A stretch of 48,480 nucleotides of DNA from an uncultured Bacilli bacterium (GCA_947628685.1 CANRAT010000001.1:1-48480); one strand, 5' to 3'; shown: positions 5,562-43,346, counted from the first letter of the stretch. Made by a program: numbers and translations. Notes: generated by a model from the sequence alone, not told the origin.

Positions 5562-5591
5562 AAAAAAGAATAGAAAAATCTATTCTTTTTT
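5562..5591 (-). terminator. Rho-independent terminator after the pilin-FGE fusion gene
   Basis: Stem AAAAAAGAATAG (5562-5573) / CTATTCTTTTTT (5580-5591) with a 6-nt loop. U-run on the minus-strand transcript. Confidence 0.6.
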
Positions 5592-7327
5592 TAAGAAAGT
5601 ATTAAACGAAATCCGACGCCAGATGGAATACCACCATGTACATAAAATTGAAATATTCCAACTTTAACATCAGAAACACCTGAGCCTCCGCCTCGAGTGA
5701 CCCAACTAGTAGATTTTTGAACATAGTCGCACTCATCATTATACCATGATAAAGTTTCACCGAATGCTTGTCCATTACAAGTAGAATTTACGCAAACCGA
5801 ATAACTAATATTATCTAAATTATATTTATCGTAATACTTTTCATCTGGTAATTCTGCTTCATTAGTCTCTAGTGTATCATCACTATTTTTTCCATTAAAT
5901 CCTGTCTTTTGTCCGTCTAAACCAACTTTGTCCCCATTAAATACATATGGAATTCCCTCTTTATCAACTGCTACACCCATGACAAACTCTTCAATACCAC
6001 CACTCATATCATATATTCCATATATATTTCCTGTTGTTGATGCTCCTGTTCCACTATTTTTTACGTCATAATGATACGTACCTTCAGTAGTTGAACTATT
6101 TTTTGAGGTCGTTGGAGCACCCAAACTCCTTCCTGTATAATTTCTTGATGAATTATTCGTATATACTTCTTTATTTTCACCTGTATAGGAACTATTGTTG
6201 TATTTACCATACAAACTTTGAGTGAGGTATGCCACTGCTGCCCATTCAATATTTTTACTCATATGTGTATCTATTTTATCTTTATTTAATCCAAACGCAT
6301 TGCCTTCTCTTGACATCGATCTTGAAGCATAAAAGAAATTGGCAACATTGTTATTAGTTAAGGCAATTTGATTAGGTAACACTCTTAATCCGTCAGCGCT
6401 TTCACAATTTTCATTACTGCAATTTAAACTATTAACTTCATTTTTTGATGAAAATGTCGCATGACTTGTCTCAAACTTTCCCATCCAATAACCACTGAGT
6501 TCTTTGCTACCAAATGTAAATGCTGGATGCGTTAACCATCCACTAGGTGTATTCCCATCATATGTTGCAGTTCCGGTATCCTTTGTACTTTTATTTATAA
6601 ATTTTATATCTATTGCTCCTGGATTTGGATAACATAATTCTGAAAACATATTGTTGCAAGCAACACTTTCTCCTTTTGCAGTTGAAGATATAGTGTAAGA
6701 ATATCTTGGTATCCATACAAACATCGCAAGTGCTTCAGGGTCATCACCATCTACAGTGATTTCATCTCCAGAATGTTTTTCAATACCTTTTTTTAATACT
6801 ACTGCGTTAGCCCACCATTGTTCTTGATAAGAGTACCATTTTTCATTCAAATCGGCTATTACCCATGATGATTTATCTTCATCATATATTACTGGATATA
6901 ATCCTTCAAATAATTCGGGATCCGAACCATTTAATAACTCTTCCTTATATGGTATATGCTCTACACATTCATCATTATTTTTTAATTCATATGTATATCC
7001 ATTATTATAATTTATTTGTACACTTTTTAATTCTGTTTGGTCTTCATCTGTATCTGAAAATACTATTGGAGATTTTATATATCCTTCACTTACTAATTCA
7101 CTTAAAGTCACACAATAACTATTTCCATTTTGTTCATCAAATTTATCTTTATTTGAATCTATATATAAATTTGCTGCATTTTCAACTAATTTATTTGTTA
7201 AACTTTTTACTTCTCCTCTTGAATTTGTAATTAAATTTAATACACTTGGAAATACTAAGGTTAAAATAACCGCTAATAAAATCAATACTCCAAGTAATTC
7301 TACTAAAGTAAATCCTCTATTTTTCAT
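5591..7327 (-). CDS. Type IV prepilin-like protein fused to an FGE-sulfatase (SUMF1)-like C-terminal domain
   Basis: N-terminus MKNRG/FTLVELLGVLILLAVI is a class-III prepilin cleavage/methylation motif (G-FTLxE). The C-terminal half has FGE-sulfatase-like motifs: NIEWAAVAYL, GIYDMSGGIEEFV, WVTRGGGS, VGFRLILS. GAGGA RBS. Confidence 0.8.
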   Translation of the reverse strand: MKNRGFTLVELLGVLILLAVILTLVFPSVLNLITNSRGEVKSLTNKLVENAANLYIDSNKDKFDEQNGNSYCVTLSELVSEGYIKSPIVFSDTDEDQTELKSVQINYNNGYTYELKNNDECVEHIPYKEELLNGSDPELFEGLYPVIYDEDKSSWVIADLNEKWYSYQEQWWANAVVLKKGIEKHSGDEITVDGDDPEALAMFVWIPRYSYTISSTAKGESVACNNMFSELCYPNPGAIDIKFINKSTKDTGTATYDGNTPSGWLTHPAFTFGSKELSGYWMGKFETSHATFSSKNEVNSLNCSNENCESADGLRVLPNQIALTNNNVANFFYASRSMSREGNAFGLNKDKIDTHMSKNIEWAAVAYLTQSLYGKYNNSSYTGENKEVYTNNSSRNYTGRSLGAPTTSKNSSTTEGTYHYDVKNSGTGASTTGNIYGIYDMSGGIEEFVMGVAVDKEGIPYVFNGDKVGLDGQKTGFNGKNSDDTLETNEAELPDEKYYDKYNLDNISYSVCVNSTCNGQAFGETLSWYNDECDYVQKSTSWVTRGGGSGVSDVKVGIFQFYVHGGIPSGVGFRLILS

Positions 7328-11302: not shown

Positions 11303-12379
11303 TTATCCTATTCTAAATGTGGGAGCAACCCCGCACGTATTATCAGCACTCTTAGTGTAGTAATTACTACCTGTAGTATTAACGATGTTGAAATAACTAG
11401 TAGCATCAGAAGCAGCCGAGCGCAGCCACCAAGGACTTGCACTATTACTTGTATTTTTTTTAATAGCGCCCCCATAACTATCTGTTGTTACATTTTGTCC
11501 TTTATAATAATCTAATTGTCTTGTATTATCCCATGCTGTGTCATAATTTATTTGATTTGAACTTCCATTCTCCCACACTTCATGTGGTGAGAGTAAATAT
11601 ATTTTATCTGTTGATTCAAGATTATTGCTATCATATTGTCCGTGTCCTGATATTATTTTTGTATCTTTTATACCGTTTTTCAATTCATCTGGTAATGCAT
11701 TATATATTGTGTTTGTTAAATAACTATATAATTCACTTTTTGGCCATCCCCCTGCATTATTATCAGATGAATTCATGTTATATGTAGTTATTATATCTAC
11801 AAATTCTACTACAAATCCACATGCAGTCTCAGAAAAATCATCTCTTTCGCACCCTTCTTTTCCATCTGTTTTATTTGCTATTCTTACTGTATATGATTTT
11901 CCTTCAAACTCTTCTCCTTTTAACGTTATCTCTTTTTCATCTCCTACATTATATTTTTCTGTTGTCCCTTCTCTTACATTCGCTATTATTGTTGCCCATG
12001 AGTCTTCAGAAAGTGATTTTGCTTCTGGTATTGGCTCACAAGTAAATTTTATTGTTTCTTCTTTAACTATTCCATTATTTAGTGTTATACTACCTCCACA
12101 AGGTTTAGAACCTTCTACTTCTACTTTTAATTCTTCTCCATAACAATTTAAATTACCATTACTTTTAACTGTACAAGTTTTCGGATTAAATCCGCTAACT
12201 AAATTTTTTCTTGCTATCGCAAGTTCTATTGCTTTTTCATATAATTCTATACTTCTTTTACTTGTTTCATTTTTTGCATCACTTATTAAATCTAACACTA
12301 TCGGTACAGATATTAAAGCAATTATTGCTAGTATTACTATTACTGCAAGTAATTCTATTAATGTAAATCCTTTTTTCAT
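11303..12379 (-). CDS. Type IV prepilin-like protein fused to a DUF6273-like C-terminal domain
   Basis: MKKG/FTLIELLAVIVILAIIA prepilin motif. The C-terminus (SPWWLRSAASDA ... CGVAPTFRIG) resembles the WLRS...GVRP family. The ORF is open to a GTG at 12388, but the ATG at 12379 with AAGGA upstream gives the canonical short leader. Confidence 0.8.
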   Translation of the reverse strand: MKKGFTLIELLAVIVILAIIALISVPIVLDLISDAKNETSKRSIELYEKAIELAIARKNLVSGFNPKTCTVKSNGNLNCYGEELKVEVEGSKPCGGSITLNNGIVKEETIKFTCEPIPEAKSLSEDSWATIIANVREGTTEKYNVGDEKEITLKGEEFEGKSYTVRIANKTDGKEGCERDDFSETACGFVVEFVDIITTYNMNSSDNNAGGWPKSELYSYLTNTIYNALPDELKNGIKDTKIISGHGQYDSNNLESTDKIYLLSPHEVWENGSSNQINYDTAWDNTRQLDYYKGQNVTTDSYGGAIKKNTSNSASPWWLRSAASDATSYFNIVNTTGSNYYTKSADNTCGVAPTFRIG

Positions 12380-12405
12380 ATACGTCACTATCCTTAAATT
12401 TCTAA

Positions 12406-27693: not shown

Positions 27694-27722
27694 ATTATAC
27701 ATTTTTGAAAAAACTATGTCAA
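27694..27722 (-). promoter_or_regulatory. Exact consensus sigma-A promoter (TTGACA-17-TATAAT) for the VirB2-like operon
   Basis: Minus strand: TTGACA (27722-27717), 17 nt, TATAAT (27699-27694). It sits in the 82-bp gap between the TadZ-like gene and the first VirB2-like gene. Confidence 0.75.
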
Positions 27723-27740
27723 CAAATATTTAATAATTTA

Positions 27741-28748
27741 TTAAATTTCTGATTTTAATTTATTAAATCCAAGTTTAACTAACAATTTATCAAGTTCAGG
27801 CAATTTCTTTTCTCTTTCATTTAATGGAGCAAGATTATAAAAGACTTTCATCCTAGCCTCATATTCAAAATTAGCTACTTGACTTGGCGTAAGTAAACTT
27901 TGATTTAAAACTACTTTTTTATCTTTTAATCCTTGTATACTTGCCGCACTTAGCATCATAAGTTTTTGAAGTTTAATGATAGATGGCTCTATTAAATAAA
28001 GTACCTCTTGACAAAATCCTTCAGCAACTAAACTATTATTTATATCAACTAAAATAACATCTTTGTCTTTATATTTGTTAATAATACTTCCAACTTCACC
28101 TGTTATAGTTGAAATTAAATCTTTATCTCTAAAATAATTAAAATCAGTTTTATCTACTTCGATTGCAATAACATTATAGTGTTTAGTAAGTTCCTTTTTC
28201 ATCATATATACTAAACTACTCGCACCAGACTGCTTTGTTACATTTTTTACTCCAATTATTCTTGTTCCATAAAATTCATTATTTGTAACTTCATTTATTG
28301 AATTAGAATTAATTACAGGAGTTATAAACTGTACAGGCTGGGGTGCTTGATTTTGTGAATTTTGAACTGTTAACTGATGAAATTTAGCAACATCACGGTA
28401 AGTATTAGGAGTATTATATAAATACTGAATTCCTTCTACATTTTTAGTAAAATTATATATGCCCATAGATACTAAATTAGATAAAAAGCTTGGATTACTA
28501 GTTTTTTCAGTACCATCTAACAAAAGAATAATTTTATCTGTATCTAATGACATTGATATTTTTTGTAAGTTAACAATATCTGTATAATTTTTAATTGCCG
28601 TTATATCAAGTATCATTCTTTGAAAAAAGAAATTTTGGAAAGTTGAAATAATTTCATCAGCATCAAATTCCCCATTCATTTCTTTTATTACGTCTATTCC
28701 CAAATTTTCAAGCATCATTTGATTTTTATTTGAAATAATTACATTCAT
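27741..28748 (-). CDS. TadZ/CpaE-like protein (pseudo-receiver plus ParA/MinD-like domain with a degenerate P-loop)
   Basis: The N-terminal ~110 aa is receiver-like. The C-terminal domain starts IIGVKNVTKQSGASSLVYMM where MinD/ParA proteins have GxKGGVGKTT. It lies next to Tad genes. Confidence 0.55.
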   Translation of the reverse strand: MNVIISNKNQMMLENLGIDVIKEMNGEFDADEIISTFQNFFFQRMILDITAIKNYTDIVNLQKISMSLDTDKIILLLDGTEKTSNPSFLSNLVSMGIYNFTKNVEGIQYLYNTPNTYRDVAKFHQLTVQNSQNQAPQPVQFITPVINSNSINEVTNNEFYGTRIIGVKNVTKQSGASSLVYMMKKELTKHYNVIAIEVDKTDFNYFRDKDLISTITGEVGSIINKYKDKDVILVDINNSLVAEGFCQEVLYLIEPSIIKLQKLMMLSAASIQGLKDKKVVLNQSLLTPSQVANFEYEARMKVFYNLAPLNEREKKLPELDKLLVKLGFNKLKSEI

Positions 28749-28762
28749 ATTTTATCCCCTTT

Positions 28763-29245
28763 TTAATAACTATAATCCTTACCCATTATTTTAGTCTCAC
28801 CGTATATAGGCATATTTATGATATCACCAATAATAGGAAAGTTGAAATGAACAAAAGTAACTACTACATAATATTTAGATTCATCACTTCCTGTAATAGA
28901 ATTAGTCCTTCCCTCTACTTCAAAAACGCAATAATTATAACCTCTCGTATTATCATTAACGTTTTTTGGAGAATATATTCCTATTTCTCTTAAATGTTTT
29001 TTTACTTTATTACTATTGCAAAAATCTTTTGTTGAAACAGTATATCCAGCTTCACTTAAACTCTCAGTTACTTCATGTGAGGCAGCAGAATTATATTCAC
29101 CATATTTTTCTATTATATCAATAATTCTATTTTTTACTCTATACGCTTTTGAATAGGAAATAATACCTATAAATACAAGTATTATTATTGCAGAAAATAC
29201 AAGAACTATATTTAATAATAAAGCACTTCCTATTGATTCTCTCAT
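28763..29245 (-). CDS. TadE/TadF-like minor pilin candidate
   Basis: N-terminus MRESIG-SALLLNIVLVFSAIIILVF (short charged leader, Gly, hydrophobic helix). Paralogous to 29250-29708. Confidence 0.55.
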   Translation of the reverse strand: MRESIGSALLLNIVLVFSAIIILVFIGIISYSKAYRVKNRIIDIIEKYGEYNSAASHEVTESLSEAGYTVSTKDFCNSNKVKKHLREIGIYSPKNVNDNTRGYNYCVFEVEGRTNSITGSDESKYYVVVTFVHFNFPIIGDIINMPIYGETKIMGKDYSY

Positions 29246-29249
29246 TTAA

Positions 29250-29708
29250 TCACCCACCACATGCACTTTGATCTTCAAAGTTATATAATCTATTAGTATT
29301 TGAATATATAGGTATTTCCAACAATCTATTTATAATTGGTACGTTTAATAACATATTTGTCTTTATTCTATAATAGTAATATACCTCACACTTATCATTA
29401 TTTCTTTGAATTTCATCACATAAATAAACACAATATCCATCATTACCGTGGTACTGAAGAGTACAACCACTAATATAACCACAGCTATTAAGTTTCTTTT
29501 TATTATATCCAATAGATTTTAATTTTTGAGTTATTTCACTTTTTGCATAACTATTATAACCTTCGTATTTTTCAATAGTTTCAGTAATAATATTGCTTAC
29601 CTTATTACTTTTAAAGTATACAAGAGTGGCTGCAAGAAATGCAAAAACTATTACTATAAATACAATTACGATGTTCAAAGTAACTGTATAGCCTACACTC
29701 TCTTTCAT
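29250..29708 (-). CDS. TadE/TadF-like minor pilin candidate
   Basis: N-terminus MKESVG-YTVTLNIVIVFIVIVFAF. Cys-rich ectodomain. AGGAGGTAGG RBS. Confidence 0.55.
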   Translation of the reverse strand: MKESVGYTVTLNIVIVFIVIVFAFLAATLVYFKSNKVSNIITETIEKYEGYNSYAKSEITQKLKSIGYNKKKLNSCGYISGCTLQYHGNDGYCVYLCDEIQRNNDKCEVYYYYRIKTNMLLNVPIINRLLEIPIYSNTNRLYNFEDQSACGG

Positions 29709-29789
29709 ATCCTACCTCCTATTATTACTAAATCAATTATACATTTAAAACATTGTTTTGTCAATGTAATTAAAAAATCTTTATTTTCT

Positions 29790-31274
29790 TTACACTCTTT
29801 TTAACAATGAAAAATATTTCTCTTCAAATATAACCTCAAAATTGTCGCTTATTAAGTATGAATAAACATCAGAATCCGTGTTAACGAGTGCATAATCAAA
29901 ATTATATTTATCAAAAACTTCTTTATATGTTGAATATTCCTTAGTTTTCAAAAAATCACTAATTATATCATATCCACCATTAAATTCTTTAATATATACT
30001 TCAGCACGTGAATCTAAAAATACAGGAATATCATTAAACTCTATATATGAACCAAATCCAAAAATGTTGTATAATCTTATATTTTTATAATCTAAATTTT
30101 GTTTTATGTACTCTACGCATTCATCAGGGTAATCTTCTTTAATATTATAGTCGTTCCTCTTAAAATCCATACAAAATAATAAATATATATAAATTAATAT
30201 TAAACAAACAGTAGTAAAAATTGTTATAACTTTAGTATTAACACTACTAAATATTTTGGTCAATTTTTTAAATTTTATTTTTAAATCAAGTGATTCAAAT
30301 ACTGTTTTAATAAGTATTGTAGGATAAAATAAATATACAAATACAACATTCCTTTCTGCTACGAATGAAAAAAGCATAAGCCCTATTAAAAGGCTCAAAT
30401 CTCTTAATTTAAATTTAACATTTTTAATAAAGAATGTTAAAATAAACATAACTAAAAGAAATATTAGAAATTTATTAACATATAATACTGTTTTAGACAT
30501 TTCACCAATAAATGTAAAAGTATGATTAAATAATGATCTAGTAAAAAATGTATATGGATATAATTTTAATGGGGTTAATAATCCTGTAAATAAAAGTATC
30601 ACAAATGTAATAATTAAAAGTTTAGTATTTATAGGATAACTTATAATTAACTTATCACTTATTATGTTATTCATTTTTGGGAATTTTTCTAACATTTTTT
30701 TTATAACTAATTCAAATATAAATGGTAAATAGAAAACTAGAGTTAAAATCCATATAGGCATATGCATATTGGCAATTAGAATTGATATCAAAATAATAAA
30801 TATAGAATACTTTTTTTCACCTTTTTCATATAATCTATTAAGAAAATAAATTTCTAAAAAGAATAGTATATATGTTATCGATTGAACTCTTGTTTGAAAT
30901 GCATAACCAGTTATATATAAAGTAAAAAGAGAAACCAAAAGAGAAACAAATCTACTTTTAGTAAATTTATTATTTATATAATAAACTAAAATTCCAAATG
31001 AATTAAATATAATTAAGAAAAATATAAAAAGTCCATGAAATTTAAACAATGTATATATTGGATAAATTATTAAATCATATAAATAATGATGATAAATATA
31101 AGTTAAATTGGGTATAAAACTAAAATGATCTTTAAAATCTATTCCATATTTTAAAATGCTTTCTGCTGTTTTCAAATCAAAAAATATGTCATTTTCAAAA
31201 TTTTTTCTAATAATTGATATAGAAAATATCATAATAATTAGTATATTTATAATTGTAATTAATCTTTTCTTCAT
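29790..31274 (-). CDS. Polytopic GT-C-like membrane protein (putative glycosyltransferase/oligosaccharyltransferase-like)
   Basis: About 12 TM helices followed by a soluble C-terminal domain of about 110 aa, an architecture like ArnT/PMT/PglL-type GT-C enzymes. No catalytic motif was verified. The preferred start is MKKRLITI at 31274 (GGTGA 5 nt upstream). Confidence 0.45.
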   Translation of the reverse strand: MKKRLITIINILIIMIFSISIIRKNFENDIFFDLKTAESILKYGIDFKDHFSFIPNLTYIYHHYLYDLIIYPIYTLFKFHGLFIFFLIIFNSFGILVYYINNKFTKSRFVSLLVSLFTLYITGYAFQTRVQSITYILFFLEIYFLNRLYEKGEKKYSIFIILISILIANMHMPIWILTLVFYLPFIFELVIKKMLEKFPKMNNIISDKLIISYPINTKLLIITFVILLFTGLLTPLKLYPYTFFTRSLFNHTFTFIGEMSKTVLYVNKFLIFLLVMFILTFFIKNVKFKLRDLSLLIGLMLFSFVAERNVVFVYLFYPTILIKTVFESLDLKIKFKKLTKIFSSVNTKVITIFTTVCLILIYIYLLFCMDFKRNDYNIKEDYPDECVEYIKQNLDYKNIRLYNIFGFGSYIEFNDIPVFLDSRAEVYIKEFNGGYDIISDFLKTKEYSTYKEVFDKYNFDYALVNTDSDVYSYLISDNFEVIFEEKYFSLLKRV

Positions 31275-31390
31275 TATGTTCACCATGTTAATTTTACCAT
31301 GCATACTTTAAGATGTAAATTAGTATTTTAAATACTATCCTGATTCTTAAATTATTATTAGAGAAAATATGTTTTCAAAAAATTTTTTTT

Positions 31391-31417
31391 AATAAAAAAA
31401 TAGGTAAAAACCTATTT
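31391..31417 (-). terminator. Rho-independent terminator directly after the Flp-like pilin gene
   Basis: Stem AAATAGG (31398-31404) / CCTATTT (31411-31417) with a 6-nt loop, followed by TTTTTTTATT on the minus strand. It overlaps the TAA stop. Confidence 0.55.
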
Positions 31418-31646
31418 AGCTATTAATATTATTTGACTTACAAGCGTCATAGTTAATTGTAGTTGTTCCTGTGTCACCTGCATAGCAACCACCATTTCTC
31501 CAAACACCACCACACGCTGAACAAGCACTACTATTATTTGTATTACTCATCATCTGTCTAACGATTATTGTACCTACTGCAAGAACTATTGCTATTAATA
31601 CTATTGTTATTACTGTCATATTTGCCTCTCCTGCTGCTTCTTTCAT
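31416..31646 (-). CDS. Flp-like (type IVb/Tad) major pilin candidate
   Basis: 76 aa. MKEAAG-EANMTVITIVLIAIVLAVGTIIV is followed by a short Cys-rich tail with 4 Cys. It lies immediately downstream of tadC with its own strong promoter, an AGGTGA RBS and a terminator. Confidence 0.65.
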   Translation of the reverse strand: MKEAAGEANMTVITIVLIAIVLAVGTIIVRQMMSNTNNSSACSACGGVWRNGGCYAGDTGTTTINYDACKSNNINS

Positions 31647-31675
31647 CGAATCACCTACTTTCCTTCTACACTCTT

Positions 31676-31705
31676 ATTATACCACATATTAATTTTATAT
31701 TTCAA
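31676..31705 (-). promoter_or_regulatory. Strong promoter for the Flp-like pilin gene
   Basis: Minus strand: TTGAAA (31705-31700), 18 nt, TGgTATAAT (extended -10, hexamer at 31681-31676). Confidence 0.65.
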
Positions 31706-31721
31706 TATATTTTTTGTTTTT

Positions 31722-32513
31722 TTAAATTCCCATCATAACTGTCATTGACATAAATAATACTAGAAGAACTCCACCACCAGTTACGAATAACATTATCATG
31801 GTTCTTTTTTCCATTCCTTCAAGTCTTTCTTTGTACTTTATATCACGAGCCTTATTTTGGAGTGATGAAACTGTTTTTGAAAAGGCCATTATCTGTTCGT
31901 GTTTATCTTGACTTGATCCAAGTCCTAAACGATATAAAAGTCTCATCATTCTCATAGAATCTCTAACAGGATATTCATTTGCAAAATCAATATAAGGTTG
32001 TATTGTTGAATCACCTTCATCTATTTTTGCTATTAAAGTTCTAAGTCCAGGTTTAAATATTTCAGGAGCAGTATCCACACTTCTTGAAAGAGCAACTGGA
32101 ACTGTATAGTGTTGTACAAGAATTTCCAAACTTTTTAAATAATATGGAAGCATTGATTCTATATAGTGTAATCTTGCTTTATAATATTTTTTTAAATTAG
32201 TGTATCCACTTTTAAATACTAAGAATCCTGCAACGAATGCTAAAAGTATAAACATATAATTAGCATATCCTGTAACAAATAACAAGAATATTATTACTGC
32301 AGTTGCAATTATACCATTTCTTATTCTTCCATAAAATAATGAATTAATATCTAAATCTTTATCGCCATATTTAACCCTAAGTAAAAATACATAGTCCTTT
32401 TCCATTAGTTTTTTTACAATAGGGCTTATCTGTCCTAAAATTGCTTTTGGTTTAATTATGTTATTAACAATAAATATAAGGACTACTGCAACAGCTACTA
32501 TTACAAATCTCAT
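31722..32513 (-). CDS. tadC: TadC-like platform protein (T2SS-F domain)
   Basis: 263 aa with N-terminal and C-terminal TM helices flanking a cytoplasmic T2SSF-like helical domain. The start overlaps the tadB-like stop (ATGA). Confidence 0.7.
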   Translation of the reverse strand: MRFVIVAVAVVLIFIVNNIIKPKAILGQISPIVKKLMEKDYVFLLRVKYGDKDLDINSLFYGRIRNGIIATAVIIFLLFVTGYANYMFILLAFVAGFLVFKSGYTNLKKYYKARLHYIESMLPYYLKSLEILVQHYTVPVALSRSVDTAPEIFKPGLRTLIAKIDEGDSTIQPYIDFANEYPVRDSMRMMRLLYRLGLGSSQDKHEQIMAFSKTVSSLQNKARDIKYKERLEGMEKRTMIMLFVTGGGVLLVLFMSMTVMMGI

Positions 32514-33415
32514 TATTCAGCCCCCACATTCTCATTATAATATTTTGTACCAGATAATAGGAAATATGTATTAAATAGTACAATAATGTGTAACATAAGT
32601 CTAACATACCAAAGATTGAGCATTGTATGATATGTATCACCAAGCATTATTTGTACTAAACCTATCATAAGATATAATATTAAACCAAATCTTAAAAACT
32701 TCTTATAAAAGTTTTGTCTATCAATTCTATCTCTATAAACATTTTCAACAAGTACGTCTATATCAAGTGACATATTTTCAAGAGACTCACTCGCATCTTT
32801 TGAACCTTCATTAGTTATTTGAAGGAATAATTGATGCATGTTTTTTACCATGTAGAAATCATATTTTTCGTTCATATATTCAAGCGACTGATTAATTGTT
32901 CCATTTTCATATGCCATATCAATCATTACTTTAACATCAGATTTTACAGGATCTTCAAGTACACCAGAAGCATAAACTCCTTCAAGTGATTTAACAAAGC
33001 TTTGTGTAGTATTAAACTCCATTATAACGTTTGTAGTATAAACTTGTACTTGTTCAAAAATAAATTCACTATATAATCTTTTACATCTCAAATAATTTAT
33101 ATATGGTACTGCACTAACTGCAAGAATAGCATAAATTATTGAAACAACTAAATTATAAAAGTATAAATATGTTATTATTCCTCCACCTAAAGCAAACAAT
33201 ATTACCTGTCCAATATATTGTTGAATAGTATAGTCTTGATTTAATTCTTTTATTTTTTTCTTAATTTCTTTATATGTGTAAGGAGCAACTTTACTATATA
33301 GCCTTTTTGTATTAGTATTTAAAAATTGATAGGCTTGATCTCCCATGCCACTTCTATATACTATAATAAATATAATTAACAAAGCAACAATGAAGAAAAG
33401 TAAAGCTATATTCAT
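32513..33415 (-). CDS. tadB: TadB-like platform protein (T2SS-F domain)
   Basis: 300 aa with the same TM / helical domain / TM architecture. It follows tadA directly. AGGAGGGG RBS. Confidence 0.7.
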   Translation of the reverse strand: MNIALLFFIVALLIIFIIVYRSGMGDQAYQFLNTNTKRLYSKVAPYTYKEIKKKIKELNQDYTIQQYIGQVILFALGGGIITYLYFYNLVVSIIYAILAVSAVPYINYLRCKRLYSEFIFEQVQVYTTNVIMEFNTTQSFVKSLEGVYASGVLEDPVKSDVKVMIDMAYENGTINQSLEYMNEKYDFYMVKNMHQLFLQITNEGSKDASESLENMSLDIDVLVENVYRDRIDRQNFYKKFLRFGLILYLMIGLVQIMLGDTYHTMLNLWYVRLMLHIIVLFNTYFLLSGTKYYNENVGAE

Positions 33416-33426
33416 ATTATCCCCTC

Positions 33427-34605
33427 CTATTCGAAAATTATTTCATTTTCTAATTTAGTAGTGTTATTATCACCAGTTAAATTAAAATTATTTTGTACAT
33501 TTTCTTGTTTAATAACATCTTGTTGTTCTTGATCTTCTTGTGCATTATATTCCTCTTTAATAAATCCTGTTGGAAGCGTCACTCCTTGAGTTTCCAAATA
33601 TTCTATCAAATATTTAGATGGATTTTTTCTATAAACCTTACCGTCTGGTGTCTTTTTATAAAGAGTATTATATTTTGCATCATTATCTTCTGTGACGTAG
33701 AATTCAGTAACTTCGGCAATCTCTCTTACAAAATTTTTAGTTACTTTATCTTGATAACCTCTTATATAGACTCCAAGTTGAATATATCTATAAATTGATT
33801 TTAAAAATTGCTCTATATCCTGATTAGTCTCAAGAAGACTATACATACGGTTTGGTATAGATGCTGCTTTATCAGCATGTATTGTAGACAAGATATAATG
33901 TCCTGATGAAATAGAGTTTCTAACTGCCATTACAGCTTCCGCGCTACGCACCTCGGACAAAAGTATCCATTTTGGATTCTGTCTCATACAAGTAACCAAA
34001 ACATCAGAATAACTGGCTATGTTATTTGTTTTCATAGCGACTATATCTCTATTTGGATATATCCTATCCAAGTGAAGTTCAAGTGTATCCTCAATTGTTA
34101 TCAATTTTTCGTTTTCATATGTATTTGCAGCCAAGAACTTAACGAACTCTGTTTTACCTGAGCCTGTCTCACCACAAACAATTATATTGCAATGTCCATG
34201 AACGCAAGTTATCAAAAAATCTAATATATCTTCAGTTATATATTTTTCTTTTAATATCTTATTTCTTTCCAAACGAATTTTAGCAGGTGTTTTACGAATA
34301 ACACATGCAATTCCGTTTCTAGCTATAGAATCGTGTACGAAATTCATACGCAATTCTGCACTTTCGCTATCTAGAAATGGATGGGCAGCATTAAAACTTT
34401 TCCCCATAACATTCGAACATTGAAAAGCCAATTTTTCCATAAAAGCATTATTAATTGCAGGATTTTCTATTCTAAAAATACCTTTTGATAATGTTTTTAA
34501 CCAAACTTGTCCATTATTACTATATGAAATATCGGTAATATCATCGTTATCTAAATATTCTTTTAGTGGACCAAAGTCCATTCCTTCGAATATATTATCA
34601 CTCAT
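33427..34605 (-). CDS. tadA: TadA/CpaF-family secretion ATPase (VirB11 superfamily)
   Basis: Walker A GETGSGKTEF, Asp box ITIEDTLEL, Walker B WILLSEVRS and His box LSTIHA. 392 aa. Confidence 0.88.
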   Translation of the reverse strand: MSDNIFEGMDFGPLKEYLDNDDITDISYSNNGQVWLKTLSKGIFRIENPAINNAFMEKLAFQCSNVMGKSFNAAHPFLDSESAELRMNFVHDSIARNGIACVIRKTPAKIRLERNKILKEKYITEDILDFLITCVHGHCNIIVCGETGSGKTEFVKFLAANTYENEKLITIEDTLELHLDRIYPNRDIVAMKTNNIASYSDVLVTCMRQNPKWILLSEVRSAEAVMAVRNSISSGHYILSTIHADKAASIPNRMYSLLETNQDIEQFLKSIYRYIQLGVYIRGYQDKVTKNFVREIAEVTEFYVTEDNDAKYNTLYKKTPDGKVYRKNPSKYLIEYLETQGVTLPTGFIKEEYNAQEDQEQQDVIKQENVQNNFNLTGDNNTTKLENEIIFE

Positions 34606-34606
34606 A

Positions 34607-35416
34607 TTACTCCACAGGTTGTTCTACATTTTCATCAGTAATAACGTCTTCCTCGATTGTAATAGATTGTGCATCTATATAATCTCTTAAAGTAGCACTT
34701 GTAACAATTACATAATTCTCTGTTGGCACTGTAGATCCTCTTGGAGCTAAAACAAGTTCAAGATTTAAATATTCTGCTTTTTTAAGTAACATATACATAT
34801 CTTGGTTTACTGCAAATCCTATTTTAGAAGGAGTTCCTATATTTAAAGAATCTTCAAATACATTCTTACCATTTCCATCATGTACAACTAATACTTTAAC
34901 ATTTTTCATAAGTTTACCAAATATTATTGTACCATTTTCATCTGTCGCTTTCATATATATATCTATATAAGAATTTGGTAAAACTGAATTACCTAATGTA
35001 CTAGTTATATTAACGCTCATATAAAATCCAAGTTCTCCTGATGCTCTATCTAGTTGTTCAATCCAGTTTCCTGGTATATTAGCGCCCTCTGCAAGCCATT
35101 CACTATAAAACATACTTCCTTCTGGAATTGTTACATTGTAATTTGTGTATTTATCAATTATCTGATTTGAATATCTAATCGCATTTTCACTTACCATGCT
35201 ACTTGCGACTTGTTGATAGACAATATCGTCTGCAGTTATTCTAGTTTGTGGATTTATTTTTCTTGAAGCAACCGGCATACTTACTGGATTAGTTTTTTGT
35301 TTTATACTTCCACTATATCCAAAATAAAGTACGACTAGTATAACAATTACAAGTAATATTGTAACAACATTTTTATTAGTAATAAATCTTTTAAACCCTA
35401 TCAATATATTATTCAT
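34607..35416 (-). CDS. cpaB: CpaB/RcpC-like Flp pilus assembly protein (SAF domain)
   Basis: N-terminal TM helix, then VSMPVASRKINPQTRITADDIVYQQV, typical of the SAF-domain start of CpaB. It lies immediately upstream of tadA. Confidence 0.65.
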   Translation of the reverse strand: MNNILIGFKRFITNKNVVTILLVIVILVVLYFGYSGSIKQKTNPVSMPVASRKINPQTRITADDIVYQQVASSMVSENAIRYSNQIIDKYTNYNVTIPEGSMFYSEWLAEGANIPGNWIEQLDRASGELGFYMSVNITSTLGNSVLPNSYIDIYMKATDENGTIIFGKLMKNVKVLVVHDGNGKNVFEDSLNIGTPSKIGFAVNQDMYMLLKKAEYLNLELVLAPRGSTVPTENYVIVTSATLRDYIDAQSITIEEDVITDENVEQPVE

Positions 35417-35431
35417 CTTTTTATTCTCCTC

Positions 35432-35848
35432 TCAATATGTAGTTTCTATTATCTCATCGATATTATTTACAATATCAAATTCAAAAGTATCATTTTCCTT
35501 ATTAGGTAACAAGAAATTTTGAGATTTTACACTAGATACTCTCATGCTTACCTTAGGTGGAACCTCATTTACATCATATATTTCAATTACATATGTATTA
35601 GATAAATCGGCATTTTCAGAAAATCTTCTAATAAAGTTTTCAACAAACTTTTCTTCCTCAATCCTTATTGTACTATCTTTTCTATATGCTGCTAAATCTA
35701 AAGAATCCTCCATGGCAGCTTCAACAGTTTCTCTTAATAAATTAAAATTGTGTTGATCCGTTCTTGTCACAGTTGCAAAGAACCAAATAATTCCAATGGC
35801 AAATAGTCCAAGTGCCATTATCGCATATCCCCACATTGACTCTTTCAA
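35432..35848 (-). CDS. Minor pilin-like protein sharing the MKES-x-G leader
   Basis: The ORF is open to a GTG at 35863. However, a TTG at 35848 sits 4 nt after AGGTGA and yields MKESMWG-YAIMALGLFAIGII, matching the leaders of three other cluster proteins. Confidence 0.55.
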   Translation of the reverse strand: MKESMWGYAIMALGLFAIGIIWFFATVTRTDQHNFNLLRETVEAAMEDSLDLAAYRKDSTIRIEEEKFVENFIRRFSENADLSNTYVIEIYDVNEVPPKVSMRVSSVKSQNFLLPNKENDTFEFDIVNNIDEIIETTY

Positions 35849-38260: not shown

Positions 38261-40747
38261 TTAACGTTTACTACTATTATTTACTGTTACTACATTTCTT
38301 GAAATTAAAGTAGTTAAATAATTGCTTGTACAAATCTTTCCTTCACTATCACATGTCATATTAAAGTCATCGTATGTTGTTCCTGAATTATAATTCCTAA
38401 TTTCTTGAATTGTTTGTGGTGTGAGAGTTATTACATATTTTGGCTCTACTTTTGCATTTGTTTTAGGTATTATCCCATACCTATTTGGTGTATTTTGCAT
38501 TATTGTCTCTGAATATAAATCTTTACCCGTTGATATATATTCATTCATTAATGTTAAATCTGATGCATCAATATTTCCATCTCTATTGATATCGTATTTG
38601 TCTTCTAAAGTATCTATTCTTTCCATTACTATATTGTAATCGCTTGCATCAAATTTACCATCACCATTAATGTCTAGACTATCCATTGTCCAGTTTGTTC
38701 CTGCTTTTCTGGTATTACCACTCTTTCCTGGAAATGAATCTTCTACATCTACACTCCTATATTTTAAATTTAATTCATTATTTAGTATCTCATTAAATAT
38801 ATCATATGTACAAGATGTATTATCGTTTGCTATTGTATTACCTATTGGATCACTTATCCTAAATGGAATTGTTTTTCTAATTGTTGTTGTCTCTGAATCT
38901 AATTTGGTAACATATCCATATCCTAAAAATCTGCAATTGAAACATTGCGTAAATGATGTTTCTCCTGTTCCAATTTTAGAATATACTGAAGGTAGGTTAT
39001 ATAATTTCTTATATGTATATGTAAAAACTGAATATCCACTTCCAGAATATGAATTTGATGTAGTATCTAATAATTCATTTGTTAATTCATTATCATTTAA
39101 TGAAACACTTCCTACATACTTTGAATAATCTTTATTATCTGTAAAATTGTTTGGTGTTCCAAATACGTAACACGTTCTTGTTACCGTTCCTTCTCCTATT
39201 TTAGGTTCTTTTAAGTTTAATAACATTTGACCTGATTTTATCTTTCCAAAATAATGATTATTTGTTATACCTAATACATTTGAAAAATTAAATGTATGTC
39301 CACAAAATGCAGTATAATTATTATTTAAAGTAATTTCTTCTTCAAATCCTGATAAATTATTTTCATTAAAATTACTAATACTAATATCTGCATACATACA
39401 ACCATATTTTTTATTGTAATTTGGTGTCGCATTATTTGTACAAGTTGGATTTGAGAAATCTAAAAGCCCTTTCTTTTTATATTTGTTATATAAAGTTACT
39501 AATTGATTTCTTGTAGGATTAGAACCTAATGATTCTAACTCGCTTTGACAACTTTTTTTATTTGTTACAGTTATACTCTTATCCGAATTGATTAATACTC
39601 TCATAGTTCTTCCACTCATACTTATACAGCCAACACAACTTCCTGCTTCATATCCACTAGGTAATGTTTCTGTTAAAGCATAAGTAATTGTACTTGCTGG
39701 TATACCTGTTATCTCACAAACACCATTAATATTTGTAGTACAAGTCATAGGAGAAATGCCGTTACCACTTAATGTGAATTTAACGCCACTAATAGGACTA
39801 TTTGTTGTACTATCTTTTTTTGTTATTTTTAAAGTATATTTTGTAGGAGTTGGATTATCTCCTGGATCTCCTGGATCGGGTGGATAATCAGGAAAAATAT
39901 CATCAATTATATATTTAAAATATCCGCATCCAGAGTAATCACTTGTTAATCTACCAGTTTGACCACTTCCAGAATTTTGAATAGGGCAAGAACTTTTGCC
40001 TGCTATTTGTAAGGCAGTTGACATTGAACCGTATATATACTGAAAATCTAATCCAGGTGTGCTAGTTGTTGTTGTTTTGCACAAATTGCCTTCAGGACCA
40101 GAATATGCAACATTAAGTCCCATTAAAGCAGTTGATGTTCCAAAATATTTCGCACCATCACAAAATACAAGCGTAACTGGCTCTATTATTATCAAATCAC
40201 CTGATTTAATATTATTAAAGTCATAACCTATAACGCTCAAAACGCCTCTTTGCTTATCTGCTAAATTATAATAAGAATTATCTCTTAAATAATTGTCTAA
40301 ATATGTACCACTACTAGCCGTATCTCTAGTCCAACTATTTCCAAGATTATTTCCATATAAGCAACCTTTAAATTTAACTGTCTGAGCGCTTGTACAACTT
40401 GCAGTAGAGCCTACATTTTTAATTTTGTCATAATCATATCCTGTTGTAGTACAAACCTTAACATCACTTAATTCTCCATAACAATCACCCTTTGAATTTG
40501 CTAGTGCGAAATACCCTTCATTAATTGTTGTTCCATTCCTAATAACTCTTACGCGAATATCATTTAAATAAGGTGATGGCCATTTTGTTGAACTTCCTGA
40601 AGCATCTCCACCAGTTTCTCCACCTGGTGACCCACCTGGAGTATTCTCATCATAAATATCAAACGCTATAGCTGTACTTGTACATATTAAAATGAGTGCA
40701 AACACAATGGATATAATTATTATACATTTTCCTATATTTTTTTTCAT
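38261..40747 (-). CDS. Secreted adhesin-like protein A (Cna-B/SpaA-like domain plus dockerin-like EF-hand pair)
   Basis: Signal peptide. Cna-B/SpaA-like segment KYTLKITKKDSTTNSPISGVKFTL...YALTETLPSGYEA. Dockerin-like segment DINGDGKFDASDYNIVM...DINRDGNIDASDLTLMNEYI. No LPXTG. AGGAG RBS. Confidence 0.75.
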   Translation of the reverse strand: MKKNIGKCIIIISIVFALILICTSTAIAFDIYDENTPGGSPGGETGGDASGSSTKWPSPYLNDIRVRVIRNGTTINEGYFALANSKGDCYGELSDVKVCTTTGYDYDKIKNVGSTASCTSAQTVKFKGCLYGNNLGNSWTRDTASSGTYLDNYLRDNSYYNLADKQRGVLSVIGYDFNNIKSGDLIIIEPVTLVFCDGAKYFGTSTALMGLNVAYSGPEGNLCKTTTTSTPGLDFQYIYGSMSTALQIAGKSSCPIQNSGSGQTGRLTSDYSGCGYFKYIIDDIFPDYPPDPGDPGDNPTPTKYTLKITKKDSTTNSPISGVKFTLSGNGISPMTCTTNINGVCEITGIPASTITYALTETLPSGYEAGSCVGCISMSGRTMRVLINSDKSITVTNKKSCQSELESLGSNPTRNQLVTLYNKYKKKGLLDFSNPTCTNNATPNYNKKYGCMYADISISNFNENNLSGFEEEITLNNNYTAFCGHTFNFSNVLGITNNHYFGKIKSGQMLLNLKEPKIGEGTVTRTCYVFGTPNNFTDNKDYSKYVGSVSLNDNELTNELLDTTSNSYSGSGYSVFTYTYKKLYNLPSVYSKIGTGETSFTQCFNCRFLGYGYVTKLDSETTTIRKTIPFRISDPIGNTIANDNTSCTYDIFNEILNNELNLKYRSVDVEDSFPGKSGNTRKAGTNWTMDSLDINGDGKFDASDYNIVMERIDTLEDKYDINRDGNIDASDLTLMNEYISTGKDLYSETIMQNTPNRYGIIPKTNAKVEPKYVITLTPQTIQEIRNYNSGTTYDDFNMTCDSEGKICTSNYLTTLISRNVVTVNNSSKR
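38268..39885. repeat. Copy 1 of a 1,618-bp direct repeat (3' two-thirds of adhesin A)
   Basis: Matches 40864-42481 at a constant offset of 2,596 bp. The boundaries were read base by base and spot-checked at three internal positions. The ORF-track translations are identical on both strands. Confidence 0.85.
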
Positions 40748-40853: not shown

Positions 40854-43346
40854 TTAGCTTCGCTTACTACTATTATTTACTGTTACTACATTTCTTGAAA
40901 TTAAAGTAGTTAAATAATTGCTTGTACAAATCTTTCCTTCACTATCACATGTCATATTAAAGTCATCGTATGTTGTTCCTGAATTATAATTCCTAATTTC
41001 TTGAATTGTTTGTGGTGTGAGAGTTATTACATATTTTGGCTCTACTTTTGCATTTGTTTTAGGTATTATCCCATACCTATTTGGTGTATTTTGCATTATT
41101 GTCTCTGAATATAAATCTTTACCCGTTGATATATATTCATTCATTAATGTTAAATCTGATGCATCAATATTTCCATCTCTATTGATATCGTATTTGTCTT
41201 CTAAAGTATCTATTCTTTCCATTACTATATTGTAATCGCTTGCATCAAATTTACCATCACCATTAATGTCTAGACTATCCATTGTCCAGTTTGTTCCTGC
41301 TTTTCTGGTATTACCACTCTTTCCTGGAAATGAATCTTCTACATCTACACTCCTATATTTTAAATTTAATTCATTATTTAGTATCTCATTAAATATATCA
41401 TATGTACAAGATGTATTATCGTTTGCTATTGTATTACCTATTGGATCACTTATCCTAAATGGAATTGTTTTTCTAATTGTTGTTGTCTCTGAATCTAATT
41501 TGGTAACATATCCATATCCTAAAAATCTGCAATTGAAACATTGCGTAAATGATGTTTCTCCTGTTCCAATTTTAGAATATACTGAAGGTAGGTTATATAA
41601 TTTCTTATATGTATATGTAAAAACTGAATATCCACTTCCAGAATATGAATTTGATGTAGTATCTAATAATTCATTTGTTAATTCATTATCATTTAATGAA
41701 ACACTTCCTACATACTTTGAATAATCTTTATTATCTGTAAAATTGTTTGGTGTTCCAAATACGTAACACGTTCTTGTTACCGTTCCTTCTCCTATTTTAG
41801 GTTCTTTTAAGTTTAATAACATTTGACCTGATTTTATCTTTCCAAAATAATGATTATTTGTTATACCTAATACATTTGAAAAATTAAATGTATGTCCACA
41901 AAATGCAGTATAATTATTATTTAAAGTAATTTCTTCTTCAAATCCTGATAAATTATTTTCATTAAAATTACTAATACTAATATCTGCATACATACAACCA
42001 TATTTTTTATTGTAATTTGGTGTCGCATTATTTGTACAAGTTGGATTTGAGAAATCTAAAAGCCCTTTCTTTTTATATTTGTTATATAAAGTTACTAATT
42101 GATTTCTTGTAGGATTAGAACCTAATGATTCTAACTCGCTTTGACAACTTTTTTTATTTGTTACAGTTATACTCTTATCCGAATTGATTAATACTCTCAT
42201 AGTTCTTCCACTCATACTTATACAGCCAACACAACTTCCTGCTTCATATCCACTAGGTAATGTTTCTGTTAAAGCATAAGTAATTGTACTTGCTGGTATA
42301 CCTGTTATCTCACAAACACCATTAATATTTGTAGTACAAGTCATAGGAGAAATGCCGTTACCACTTAATGTGAATTTAACGCCACTAATAGGACTATTTG
42401 TTGTACTATCTTTTTTTGTTATTTTTAAAGTATATTTTGTAGGAGTTGGATTATCTCCTGGATCTCCTGGATCGGGTGGATTAAAAATATCATCAATGTT
42501 ATATTGAAAATATCCGCATCCAGAATACTCACTATGTAATCTACCAGTTTGACCACCTCCTTTATTTGTAACAGGGCAAGAGGGTTTGCCTGCCGTTTGC
42601 AAAGCAGTTGACATTATGCTATATACGTTCATAAAATCTGCATATGGTGCGTTAGTTGTTGTAGTATTATTACACTGGTGACCATCCACACCAGAATAAT
42701 TGATATTAGATCCCATTAAAGCAGTCGATGTACCAAAATATCGTACATTATCACAAACAACAAGTGTAGCAGGCTCTATTATTACTTTGTCTCCTTTTTG
42801 TGCATTATTAGCATTATAACCCATGCGATCTAAAACGGTTTCTTTTAAATTTTTATATGAATTATTTTTTAAATAATCGTTTAGATAATTACCATTACCG
42901 GAATCTCGTGTCCAACTATTGCCTAAATTTTCACTATCTAAGGATCCACTAAAATTAAATTGACTTTGTACGTTAGTAGTACAACTTGCATCTTTTGCAG
43001 CATCTGATATTGAATTGTAATTATAACCAGATGTCGTACACACTTTAACTTCTGTTATGTATCCCACATCTTTTAAGTTGTTGTCATTTGGATTTTTTAA
43101 TAAAAAGTATGATTCTTTTAAAACAGAATTACCTCTAAATATTCTTACACGAATAGAATTTAAATAAGGTGATGGCCATCTTGTTGGTTTGCCTGTTCCA
43201 TCTCCATTTCCACCCTCAATAAAAGGACTACCTGGATTATTTTCATCATAAATATTATATGCCAAAACGCTTTTTATACAAATTGTTATTAGTATAAGTA
43301 AAGATATATAAATTATACTTTTTCCTACATGTTTATTAATATTCAT
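40854..43346 (-). CDS. Secreted adhesin-like protein B (paralog of A with a divergent N-terminal ~290 aa)
   Basis: Signal peptide. From PPDPGDPGDNPTPTKY to the C-terminus the sequence is identical to A, except for one extra terminal Ser. The N-terminal region is clearly homologous but diverged. Confidence 0.75.
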   Translation of the reverse strand: MNINKHVGKSIIYISLLILITICIKSVLAYNIYDENNPGSPFIEGGNGDGTGKPTRWPSPYLNSIRVRIFRGNSVLKESYFLLKNPNDNNLKDVGYITEVKVCTTSGYNYNSISDAAKDASCTTNVQSQFNFSGSLDSENLGNSWTRDSGNGNYLNDYLKNNSYKNLKETVLDRMGYNANNAQKGDKVIIEPATLVVCDNVRYFGTSTALMGSNINYSGVDGHQCNNTTTTNAPYADFMNVYSIMSTALQTAGKPSCPVTNKGGGQTGRLHSEYSGCGYFQYNIDDIFNPPDPGDPGDNPTPTKYTLKITKKDSTTNSPISGVKFTLSGNGISPMTCTTNINGVCEITGIPASTITYALTETLPSGYEAGSCVGCISMSGRTMRVLINSDKSITVTNKKSCQSELESLGSNPTRNQLVTLYNKYKKKGLLDFSNPTCTNNATPNYNKKYGCMYADISISNFNENNLSGFEEEITLNNNYTAFCGHTFNFSNVLGITNNHYFGKIKSGQMLLNLKEPKIGEGTVTRTCYVFGTPNNFTDNKDYSKYVGSVSLNDNELTNELLDTTSNSYSGSGYSVFTYTYKKLYNLPSVYSKIGTGETSFTQCFNCRFLGYGYVTKLDSETTTIRKTIPFRISDPIGNTIANDNTSCTYDIFNEILNNELNLKYRSVDVEDSFPGKSGNTRKAGTNWTMDSLDINGDGKFDASDYNIVMERIDTLEDKYDINRDGNIDASDLTLMNEYISTGKDLYSETIMQNTPNRYGIIPKTNAKVEPKYVITLTPQTIQEIRNYNSGTTYDDFNMTCDSEGKICTSNYLTTLISRNVVTVNNSSKRS
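40864..42481. repeat. Copy 2 of the 1,618-bp direct repeat (3' two-thirds of adhesin B)
   Basis: See copy 1. About 70 bp of 5' UTR/promoter sequence (…AACTTTTAATTTTAAAAAAA(A)TGTTGTATAATCAAAATAGGATAGGAG…) is also conserved upstream of both genes. Confidence 0.85.

Follow-up and report, generated by a model that had tools for sequence, protein, structure and literature searches.

How are the small membrane proteins of a gene module made ready for assembly if they all begin with nearly the same residues, none carries Glu at the fifth position of its presumed mature form, and no prepilin peptidase gene lies beside them? This question is raised by a stretch of DNA of 48,480 nt from an uncultured Bacilli bacterium (GCA_947628685.1, CANRAT010000001.1:1-48480), here called the window, which is one whole contig (C1) of a metagenome-assembled genome of 1.29 Mb with ~27% G+C and 92% completeness. 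The module occupies positions 27741-35848, inside a type IV secretion cluster, and four of its proteins share the start. In the reading that we prefer, with a probability of about 0.5, this start is a lineage-specific class III-like (prepilin-type) signal, carried by the subunits of a diverged Tad-like machine and cut by a PilD peptidase whose gene lies elsewhere in the genome.

A start shared by four proteins

All genes of the module lie on the minus strand. Its first gene in the direction of transcription encodes a DUF5411 protein of 138 amino acids (aa) (35432-35848), which begins MKESMWG/YAIMALGL (here and below, a slash within a peptide marks the known or presumed cleavage site) and whose transmembrane helix and N-terminal part may be regarded as a pilin-like module. 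Further along lie the genes of a putative mini-pilin of the size of Flp (76 aa, 31416-31646), which starts MKEAAG/EANMTVITIV and continues with a helix and a Cys-rich tail, and of two proteins resembling minor pilins at the position of TadE. The latter are paralogues with ~30% identity; the first (152 aa, 29250-29708) starts MKESVG/YTVTLNIV and carries the family signature, and the second (160 aa, 28763-29245) starts MRESIG/SALLLNIV and has 571 homologues at E<=0.001. These N-termini are those given in a preliminary description of the locus, and so is the missing Glu5, as position +5 is A in the DUF5411 protein, T in the mini-pilin and L in both TadE-like proteins, and the homologues lack Glu there likewise. 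Upstream of each of the four starts, at a distance of 3-5 nt, there is a strong Shine-Dalgarno sequence, AGGTGAT or AGGAGG. The TTG codon at 35848, which the same description took to be the true start of the DUF5411 gene, is indeed that start. It has AGGTGAT 4 nt upstream, and a GTG further upstream has no Shine-Dalgarno sequence; positions 1-133 of the 134 in the PF17424 (DUF5411) profile align with residues 1-137 (E 1.4e-47, 161.5 bits vs a cut-off of 30); and orthologues have an ATG at the equivalent position and read MKES.WG. The hydrophobic helix said to follow the motif was also found, as an uncharged stretch of ~27 residues with a mean Kyte-Doolittle value of 2.2-2.8 over 18 residues.

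The start is specific to the module. A scan for M[KR]E[SA]x(1-2)G at each possible ATG, GTG or TTG start of all open reading frames of 50 aa or more across the 1.29-Mb genome returned these four starts only, all within 7 kb, vs 0.15 expected by chance from the positional composition of ~1,236 crude genes. The motif is thus not a common property of unrelated membrane proteins of this genome, which had been named as an outcome that would speak against a signal.

The start is also conserved. DUF5411 occurs in 42 of 49 genomes of the same family and is rare elsewhere in the class. We fetched 20 related loci, 18 of them from as many genomes of this family (two of these stretches end at a contig edge) and two from family f4. 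The 18 family loci have the order DUF5411, CpaB-like protein (one or two copies), ATPase, 300-aa and 262-aa membrane proteins, one or two mini-pilins, one or two TadE-position proteins and a protein of ~330 aa, usually with VirB2-like and VirB6-like genes downstream. In 20 mini-pilin orthologues the consensus is MKEA[TAS]GE[LA]N[LMI]TV, in which M1, K2 and E7 are invariant and E3, A4, G6, N9, T11 and V12 are each at least 90% conserved. Among the best 120 of the 571 TadE-like homologues, M1 is followed by R (105) or K (14) at position 2, E (114) at position 3, A (82) or S (36) at position 4, V, I or L at position 5, and G (109), A (8), S (2) or V (1) at position 6; the sixth residue after the Gly is N (68), K (41) or Q (4). 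For DUF5411, an exhaustive search gave 694 proteins among representatives clustered at 50% identity, the best 150 of which nearly all start MKE[SA]xW[G/A/S] with position 1 of the profile on residue 1, and public data hold 3,659 relatives. Many of these proteins have C-terminal extensions of up to 1,664 aa, DUF5411 making up the N-terminal ~130 residues. The domain therefore behaves as a membrane-anchored N-terminal carrier module for large C-terminal cargo, like modular pilins.

Two further lineages extend this picture. In the two f4 loci the gene order is a variant one, with the small pilin first, and the shared start differs yet ends in Gly (MKEILQEYGG, MAGVVKSGG, MKGVIQIYG). A separate, spore-former-like lineage has the module as a stand-alone unit with spore-related neighbouring genes, and its starts are MKESTGELSM, MRDAFGSTF and MKDAFGGSF. 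Absence of the motif from orthologous clusters had been named as a second outcome that would count against a signal; instead, it is kept in syntenic modules across the family and in these two lineages.

The predicted structures are pilin-like. The AlphaFold model of the 160-aa TadE-like protein (102 sequences; pLDDT 88, pTM 0.80) has one helix of 47 residues (2-48), two short helices and a head with a three-stranded sheet, and the DUF5411 model (pLDDT 77) has a helix at 2-28/32-48 and a small alpha/beta head. As modelled, both proteins have the general lollipop outline of pilins, a likeness that is architectural and not demonstrated homology. The heads of the TadE-position proteins hold exactly two Cys in 95 of the 120 homologues and four in the remaining 25, and such paired Cys fit an extracytoplasmic location of the heads.

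The peptidase and the proposed route of the subunits

No A24 peptidase is encoded in the window, as the preliminary description had stated. In the whole genome, PF01478 has a single match, on contig C23 (65 bits), with no other at E<=10. The matching gene is intact; its protein, of 254 aa, has a GGGD and two CxxC motifs and is thus of the PilD/ComC type with a four-Cys methylase region. The gene sits between PilC-like and PilB-like genes. An A24 peptidase was found in 61 of 61 family genomes searched, usually in a single copy, as well as in both f4 genomes that bear the module, and a dedicated methylase-less TadV was present in none of the ~25 loci inspected. The canonical pilins of the genome, of which there are ~33, have leaders of 4-5 residues (MKKG/FTLIE, MKNKG/FTLIE).

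Two features that had at first been regarded as odd lose that status with these results. The leader of the module proteins is not exceptionally short, as the ~33 canonical pilins have shorter ones. Nor is a locus free of a peptidase gene exceptional, because in Bifidobacterium tadV lies outside the tad locus as a rule (PMC7979991, PMC13091076), and the B. boum group has no tadV and does have type IVa pilus genes (PMC13091076). What remains unusual is the lack of Glu+5 in any subunit, not only at the tip, together with a near-invariant neutral or acidic leader, a hydrophobic residue at -2, and no dedicated TadV.

Other candidates for the peptidase, and for a genome without one, were considered and set aside. 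A hidden GxGD peptidase within the module finds no conserved bearer, and the GMGD of the TadB-like protein is not kept among its orthologues. The 504-aa polytopic membrane protein (29790-31304), encoded between the pilin and the TadE-like genes, is not conserved in the module; 18 of the 20 related loci do not have its gene here, and the protein has neither a Pfam match nor a GxGD motif. Genome G013 (family f13, 99% complete) seemed to bear the module without an A24 peptidase, PF01478 being absent from all three f13 genomes. Its module contig, C76, carries a second asparaginyl-tRNA synthetase, whose identity is 63% to that of a family-f1 genome but no more than 58% to the other copy of G013, on contig C34, and to that of the sister genome G043. 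As this synthetase is closer to f1 than to the G013 copy, C76 is probably mis-binned, and no valid module-bearing genome without an A24 peptidase was found.

If the preferred reading is correct, the four proteins would supply a type IV filament machine, Tad-like but diverged, with its filament-type subunits: the mini-pilin of Flp size, two minor pilins at the TadE/TadF positions and the pilin-like module of DUF5411. Encoded on the chromosome, this machine would be housed within a type IV secretion cluster of the Gram-positive type. Their signal, a variant of the class III (prepilin) type, would read M-[KR]-E-[AS]-x-(W)-[Gly>Ala>Ser] and lead into a helix of ~25 uncharged residues. The subunits would be inserted with the short tail in the cytoplasm. 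The only A24 aspartic peptidase of the genome, the unlinked PilD/ComC-type enzyme that would also serve the ~33 canonical MKKG/FTLIE pilins, would then remove the tail by a cut behind the Gly, and the ATPase and the two platform-like proteins would polymerise the subunits. The missing Glu+5 may have been replaced by polar positions, which would be Glu+1, Asn+3 and Thr+5 in the mini-pilin and Asn, Lys, Gln or Arg at +6 in the minor pilins.

How well does this start fit the class to which we would assign it? In class III signals the leader ends in Gly or Ala and is of variable length, a hydrophobic stretch follows, and Glu5 is present 'often, but not always' (PMC10191384). The module proteins have a hydrophilic leader ending in Gly and a mainly hydrophobic stretch of 20-25 residues that opens a long helix; they lack Glu at +5, a PF07963 match and a positively charged leader. 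A distinct class III-like signal with an unlinked peptidase had already been proposed in the preliminary description. The proposal is now supported in part. The conservation of the start across hundreds of relatives, the small residue before the helix, the pilin-like models and the context of the machine speak for the signal, and the PilD on C23 fits the option of an unlinked peptidase.

Cleaved or retained

Several observations weigh against cleavage by PilD. The residue at -2 is hydrophobic in the module leaders, vs K or N in the canonical PilD substrates of the genome, and within the leader E3 and A/S4 are more conserved than would be expected for a discarded peptide. The Gly itself is replaced by Glu in one TadE-like protein (locus L033) and by Val in one of the 120. 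The claim that DUF5411 is a bearer of the motif stands for the window protein and many relatives, but not for subclades starting MNKAMLTVG or MKWSFASVA, which have no Gly at position 7. None of the four window proteins matches Pfam N_methyl (PF07963, at E<=0.1), Flp (PF04964) or TadE, and the canonical pilins of the same window do match PF07963. In a Pfam search with 102 TadE-like members, none matched TadE (PF07811) and two matched PF13400 (E 0.067), other matches being weak and probably helix-driven (DUF1512 in 51). Foldseek found nothing significant in the PDB for the TadE-like or the DUF5411 model, and PDB profile searches with the two alignments gave no match. The charges around the helix are of little help to a pilin topology either. 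The mean N-flank charge is +0.4 in the TadE-likes, +0.2 in DUF5411 and -0.9 in the mini-pilins, and the flank after the helix is basic (+1.4) in the TadE-likes; with such flanks the positive-inside rule does not enforce the orientation.

These points lead to the main alternative, also raised in the preliminary description, in which nothing is cut. M-K/R-E-A/S-x-G would then be a cytoplasmic tag retained for docking to, or recognition by, the ATPase or the platform, or else a determinant of orientation or assembly. The subunits would be peptidase-independent, and in the mini-pilin the invariant Glu7 would take the charge role of Glu5. Glu7 aligns with the Glu of the 'EY' pair in the f4 pilin (MKEILQEYGG), which permits a reading in which the protein starts near its 'mature' end. 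A leader that is as strongly conserved as the helix, with a neutral or acidic instead of a basic charge, is more easily explained if it is kept, and the same is true of the loci without a dedicated TadV, the occasional change of the Gly to Glu or Val, and the DUF5411 subclades without Gly7. However, a retained tag does not account for the placing of Gly>Ala>Ser precisely one residue ahead of the helix in three protein families that are unrelated, which is what a prepilin-peptidase site predicts, or for the Gly that closes the common start in both of two divergent lineages, each of which has a start of its own. It also has to contend with the presence of a PilD-type enzyme in each credible module-bearing genome searched, and it would lack precedent, because type IV filaments built from unprocessed subunits are not known (PMC10191384). 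We consider a retained N-terminus a serious possibility, although one that we hold only tentatively. The fuller proposal, a type IV filament-like machine whose subunits are processed by no prepilin peptidase, with the tail as docking tag and Glu7 in the role of Glu5, seems to us rather unlikely. If it is true, the type IV filament superfamily would gain its first peptidase-independent member, paired with a Gram-positive type IV secretion system.

Plasmid relatives of the module bear on the same choice. An ATPase of ~30% identity is encoded on 644 plasmid records, mostly of Bacillus, Listeria and Enterococcus; a near-identity search of plasmids gave no match. Three conjugative or mobilisable plasmids were inspected, pBamB1895 (pLS20 family, Bacillus), pZB18 (Enterococcus) and pLGUG1 (Listeria). 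Each has a six-gene look-alike of the module, consisting of a transmembrane protein of ~125 aa, the ATPase, two membrane proteins, and transmembrane proteins of ~120 aa and ~50 aa, a set whose order and sizes agree with those of genes 36-41 in the pLS20 family. In that family these genes encode a protein of 126 aa with an N-terminal transmembrane segment, the ATPase (~30% identical to ours), membrane proteins of 268 and 243 aa, another protein with an N-terminal transmembrane segment, of 120 aa, and a transmembrane protein of 47 aa; gene 37 has been called a 'putative VirB11', its neighbours being listed as unknown (PMC8557374). In contrast to the module proteins, the plasmid proteins do not carry M-K/R-E-A/S-x-G, and the small ones are matched by order and size, not by homology. 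Moreover, the three plasmids have no common Gly-ended start, the 47-66-aa protein beginning MLD[QS]NTDR (e.g., MLDQNTDR) followed by a helix, which lends some support to a retained N-terminus. Should these small proteins be genuine homologues, not every machine of this type would need cleavage.

It is improbable that the leader is removed by a peptidase outside the A24 family, or by an unrecognised one, encoded elsewhere or among the unannotated membrane proteins of the module. Such an enzyme would explain why the leader is unlike those of the canonical PilD substrates at -2, -3 and -4, and several module proteins without a family assignment could be thought to supply it. However, the module offers no conserved candidate, as its proteins keep no GxGD motif and the sole polytopic extra, the 504-aa protein, is missing from most related loci; PF01478, for its part, finds the C23 gene only. 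A mere by-product of paralogy and of a codon preference at starts (AAA GAA after the start codon) in an AT-rich genome, with no signalling role, is close to refuted, since even though the two TadE-like genes are paralogues and 21 of the ~1,236 crude genes begin MKE or MRE, the mini-pilin and DUF5411 show no relation to the TadE-likes apart from this common start, the four occurrences in the module far exceed the 0.15 expected, and the motif survives more than 50% sequence divergence.

The machine, its kin and its neighbours

The remaining genes of the module, in the direction of transcription, begin with that of a CpaB/RcpC-like protein of 269 aa (34607-35416), which has an N-terminal transmembrane helix and is found at the same place in all loci, sometimes duplicated. 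It matches TIGR03177 (pilus_cpaB) at E 1.3e-7 with 31 bits, below the cut-off of 71, and in Pfam it matches RcpC (E 0.035) and the SAF-like ChapFlgA (E 0.0033). The secretion ATPase of 392 aa (33427-34605) belongs to the TadA/CpaF/VirB11 superfamily (Pfam T2SSE, E 3.8e-26); its NCBIfam matches, to VirB11 (3.9e-33), TrbB (5.4e-26) and the TadA family (6.7e-26), are each under the equivalog cut-off. Two polytopic membrane proteins follow at the TadB position (300 aa, 32513-33415) and the TadC position (263 aa, 31722-32513), both conserved in synteny. The former has no Pfam match, neither of them matches T2SSF, and PDB profile searches with both alignments were empty. They appear to be remote paralogues of each other (hhalign probability 75%, E 2.6e-5, 186 columns), as expected for a TadB/TadC pair. 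After the mini-pilin gene comes that of the 504-aa protein, an accessory outside the conserved core, and then the two TadE-like genes. The module is closed by a soluble protein of 335 aa at the TadZ position (27741-28748), which has no Pfam or NCBIfam match and is conserved in all complete related loci, with 315-346 aa and a start of the form MNVI[IV]SNK.

Candidate promoters on the minus strand, recognised by consensus match only, precede the mini-pilin gene (31676-31705; TTGAAA, an 18-nt spacer, TG and TATAAT, with 11 of 12 consensus matches and the TG of an extended -10 element) and the two TadE-like genes (29736-29764; sigma-70-type, TTGACA, 17 nt, TATAAT, with 12 of 12). Another perfect 12/12 sigma-70 consensus (TTGACA, 17 nt, TATAAT) lies at 27694-27722, before a VirB2-like gene.

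In gene order the module is analogous to a Tad system, the ATPase being followed by two candidate platform proteins with a single domain each, then by a tiny pilin and two minor pilins, and last by a soluble protein that closes the set; the protein assigned as CpaB-like from matches below the cut-off would have its counterpart there too. An outside peptidase is shared with the Tad loci mentioned above (PMC7979991, PMC13091076), some lineages of which have type IVa pilus genes and no tadV. Unlike Tad pilins, however, the module proteins have no G/XXXXEY and no Glu5, the mini-pilin continuing after the Gly with E-[LA]-N-x-T-V, and the leader has only 5-6 residues with a conserved Glu. The module also differs from Tad in the absence of Pfam Flp, TadE and T2SSF matches, in a sole peptidase that is of the PilD type with a methylase domain instead of a methylase-less TadV, in the presence of DUF5411, and in its seat within a VirB4/VirD4/VirB6 secretion cluster.

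With the type IVa and Com pilins, substrates of PilD and ComC, the module proteins share a very short Gly-ended leader, a hydrophobic helix, a helix-plus-head architecture and an enzyme in the same genome. They differ from them in a neutral or acidic leader with a hydrophobic -2, in the lack of F/M-T-L-I-E and of an N_methyl match, and in having a polar N, K or Q at +6, or E+1, N+3 and T+5, instead of Glu+5. The class III signals of archaea, cut by FlaK, PibD or EppA, resemble the start described here in their short leaders, in Gly, Ala or Ser at -1 and in a dispensable Glu5. Archaeal leaders usually have Lys or Arg at -2, in contrast to the hydrophobic residue of the module, and beyond the single PF01478 match no archaeal-type peptidase was found in this genome. 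The only paper that we found to name DUF5411 deals with the clostridial version of the operon, a predicted 'secretion-related operon' of Roseburia, Ruminococcus and Eubacterium (Miller et al. 2022, PMC9523054). That operon likewise has a CpaF-like ATPase, a PilC/GspF-like membrane protein, DUF5411 and adjoining adhesin-like genes, and its remaining genes were reported to have no resemblance to pilus components. Prepilins, a peptidase or a shared N-terminal signal are not mentioned there, and our literature search found no paper describing the shared start.

All genes between 12.9 and 46.5 kb of the window lie on the minus strand. The cluster in which the module is embedded holds a type IV secretion set of the Gram-positive type, with a VirD4-like coupling protein, an M23 peptidase, a VirB4-like ATPase and a TrbL/VirB6-like protein, as well as small VirB2-like proteins and large adhesins. 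Two of the adhesin genes (38261-40747 and 40854-43346; 828 and 830 aa) are letter-for-letter identical over ~540 C-terminal residues, a region with a Cna-B-like segment and dockerin-like DxDxDG repeats, and differ in the N-terminal third, which suggests a recent duplication or gene conversion. Large polytopic membrane proteins recur as neighbours of the mini-pilin or where the module ends, as at 29790-31304 in the window, L040:4781-7261, L083:17841-19931 and L085:12810-14923. In locus L040 a YfhO-like gene of 826 aa takes the place of the 504-aa gene, and in L085 a homologue of the 504-aa protein adjoins YfhO. This recurrence of the 504-aa family and of GT-C-like proteins of the YfhO family hints that the subunits or the surrounding envelope may be glycosylated. 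The mini-pilin also has a nearly invariant N-x-T at +3 to +5.

The canonical pilins of the genome form a conspicuous group of their own. About 33 type IV pilin-like genes in 1.29 Mb are an extraordinary share of so small a genome. On contig C26 (11457-15450) they include a tandem array of about ten genes encoding 130-160 aa each, and many of the pilins of the genome are modular proteins of 350-580 aa. Pilin-like genes of this group also lie in the window, at 11303-12388 and 5591-7327.

A large family of uncultured gut Bacilli with small genomes has the module as a core feature, and the findings suggest that these bacteria may build a contact filament beside a secretion channel. Conjugative plasmids of Bacillus, Listeria and Enterococcus carry gene sets that resemble it. 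The small proteins of the module are still annotated as hypothetical; if they are taken as pilin-like subunits with a signal of their own, M[KR]E[AS]x(1-2)[GAS] followed by a helix can serve as a search pattern for their annotation. The question that this locus raises is whether one PilD serves two very different classes of substrates, or whether the subunits are assembled unprocessed. Either answer would widen the notion of the class III signal.

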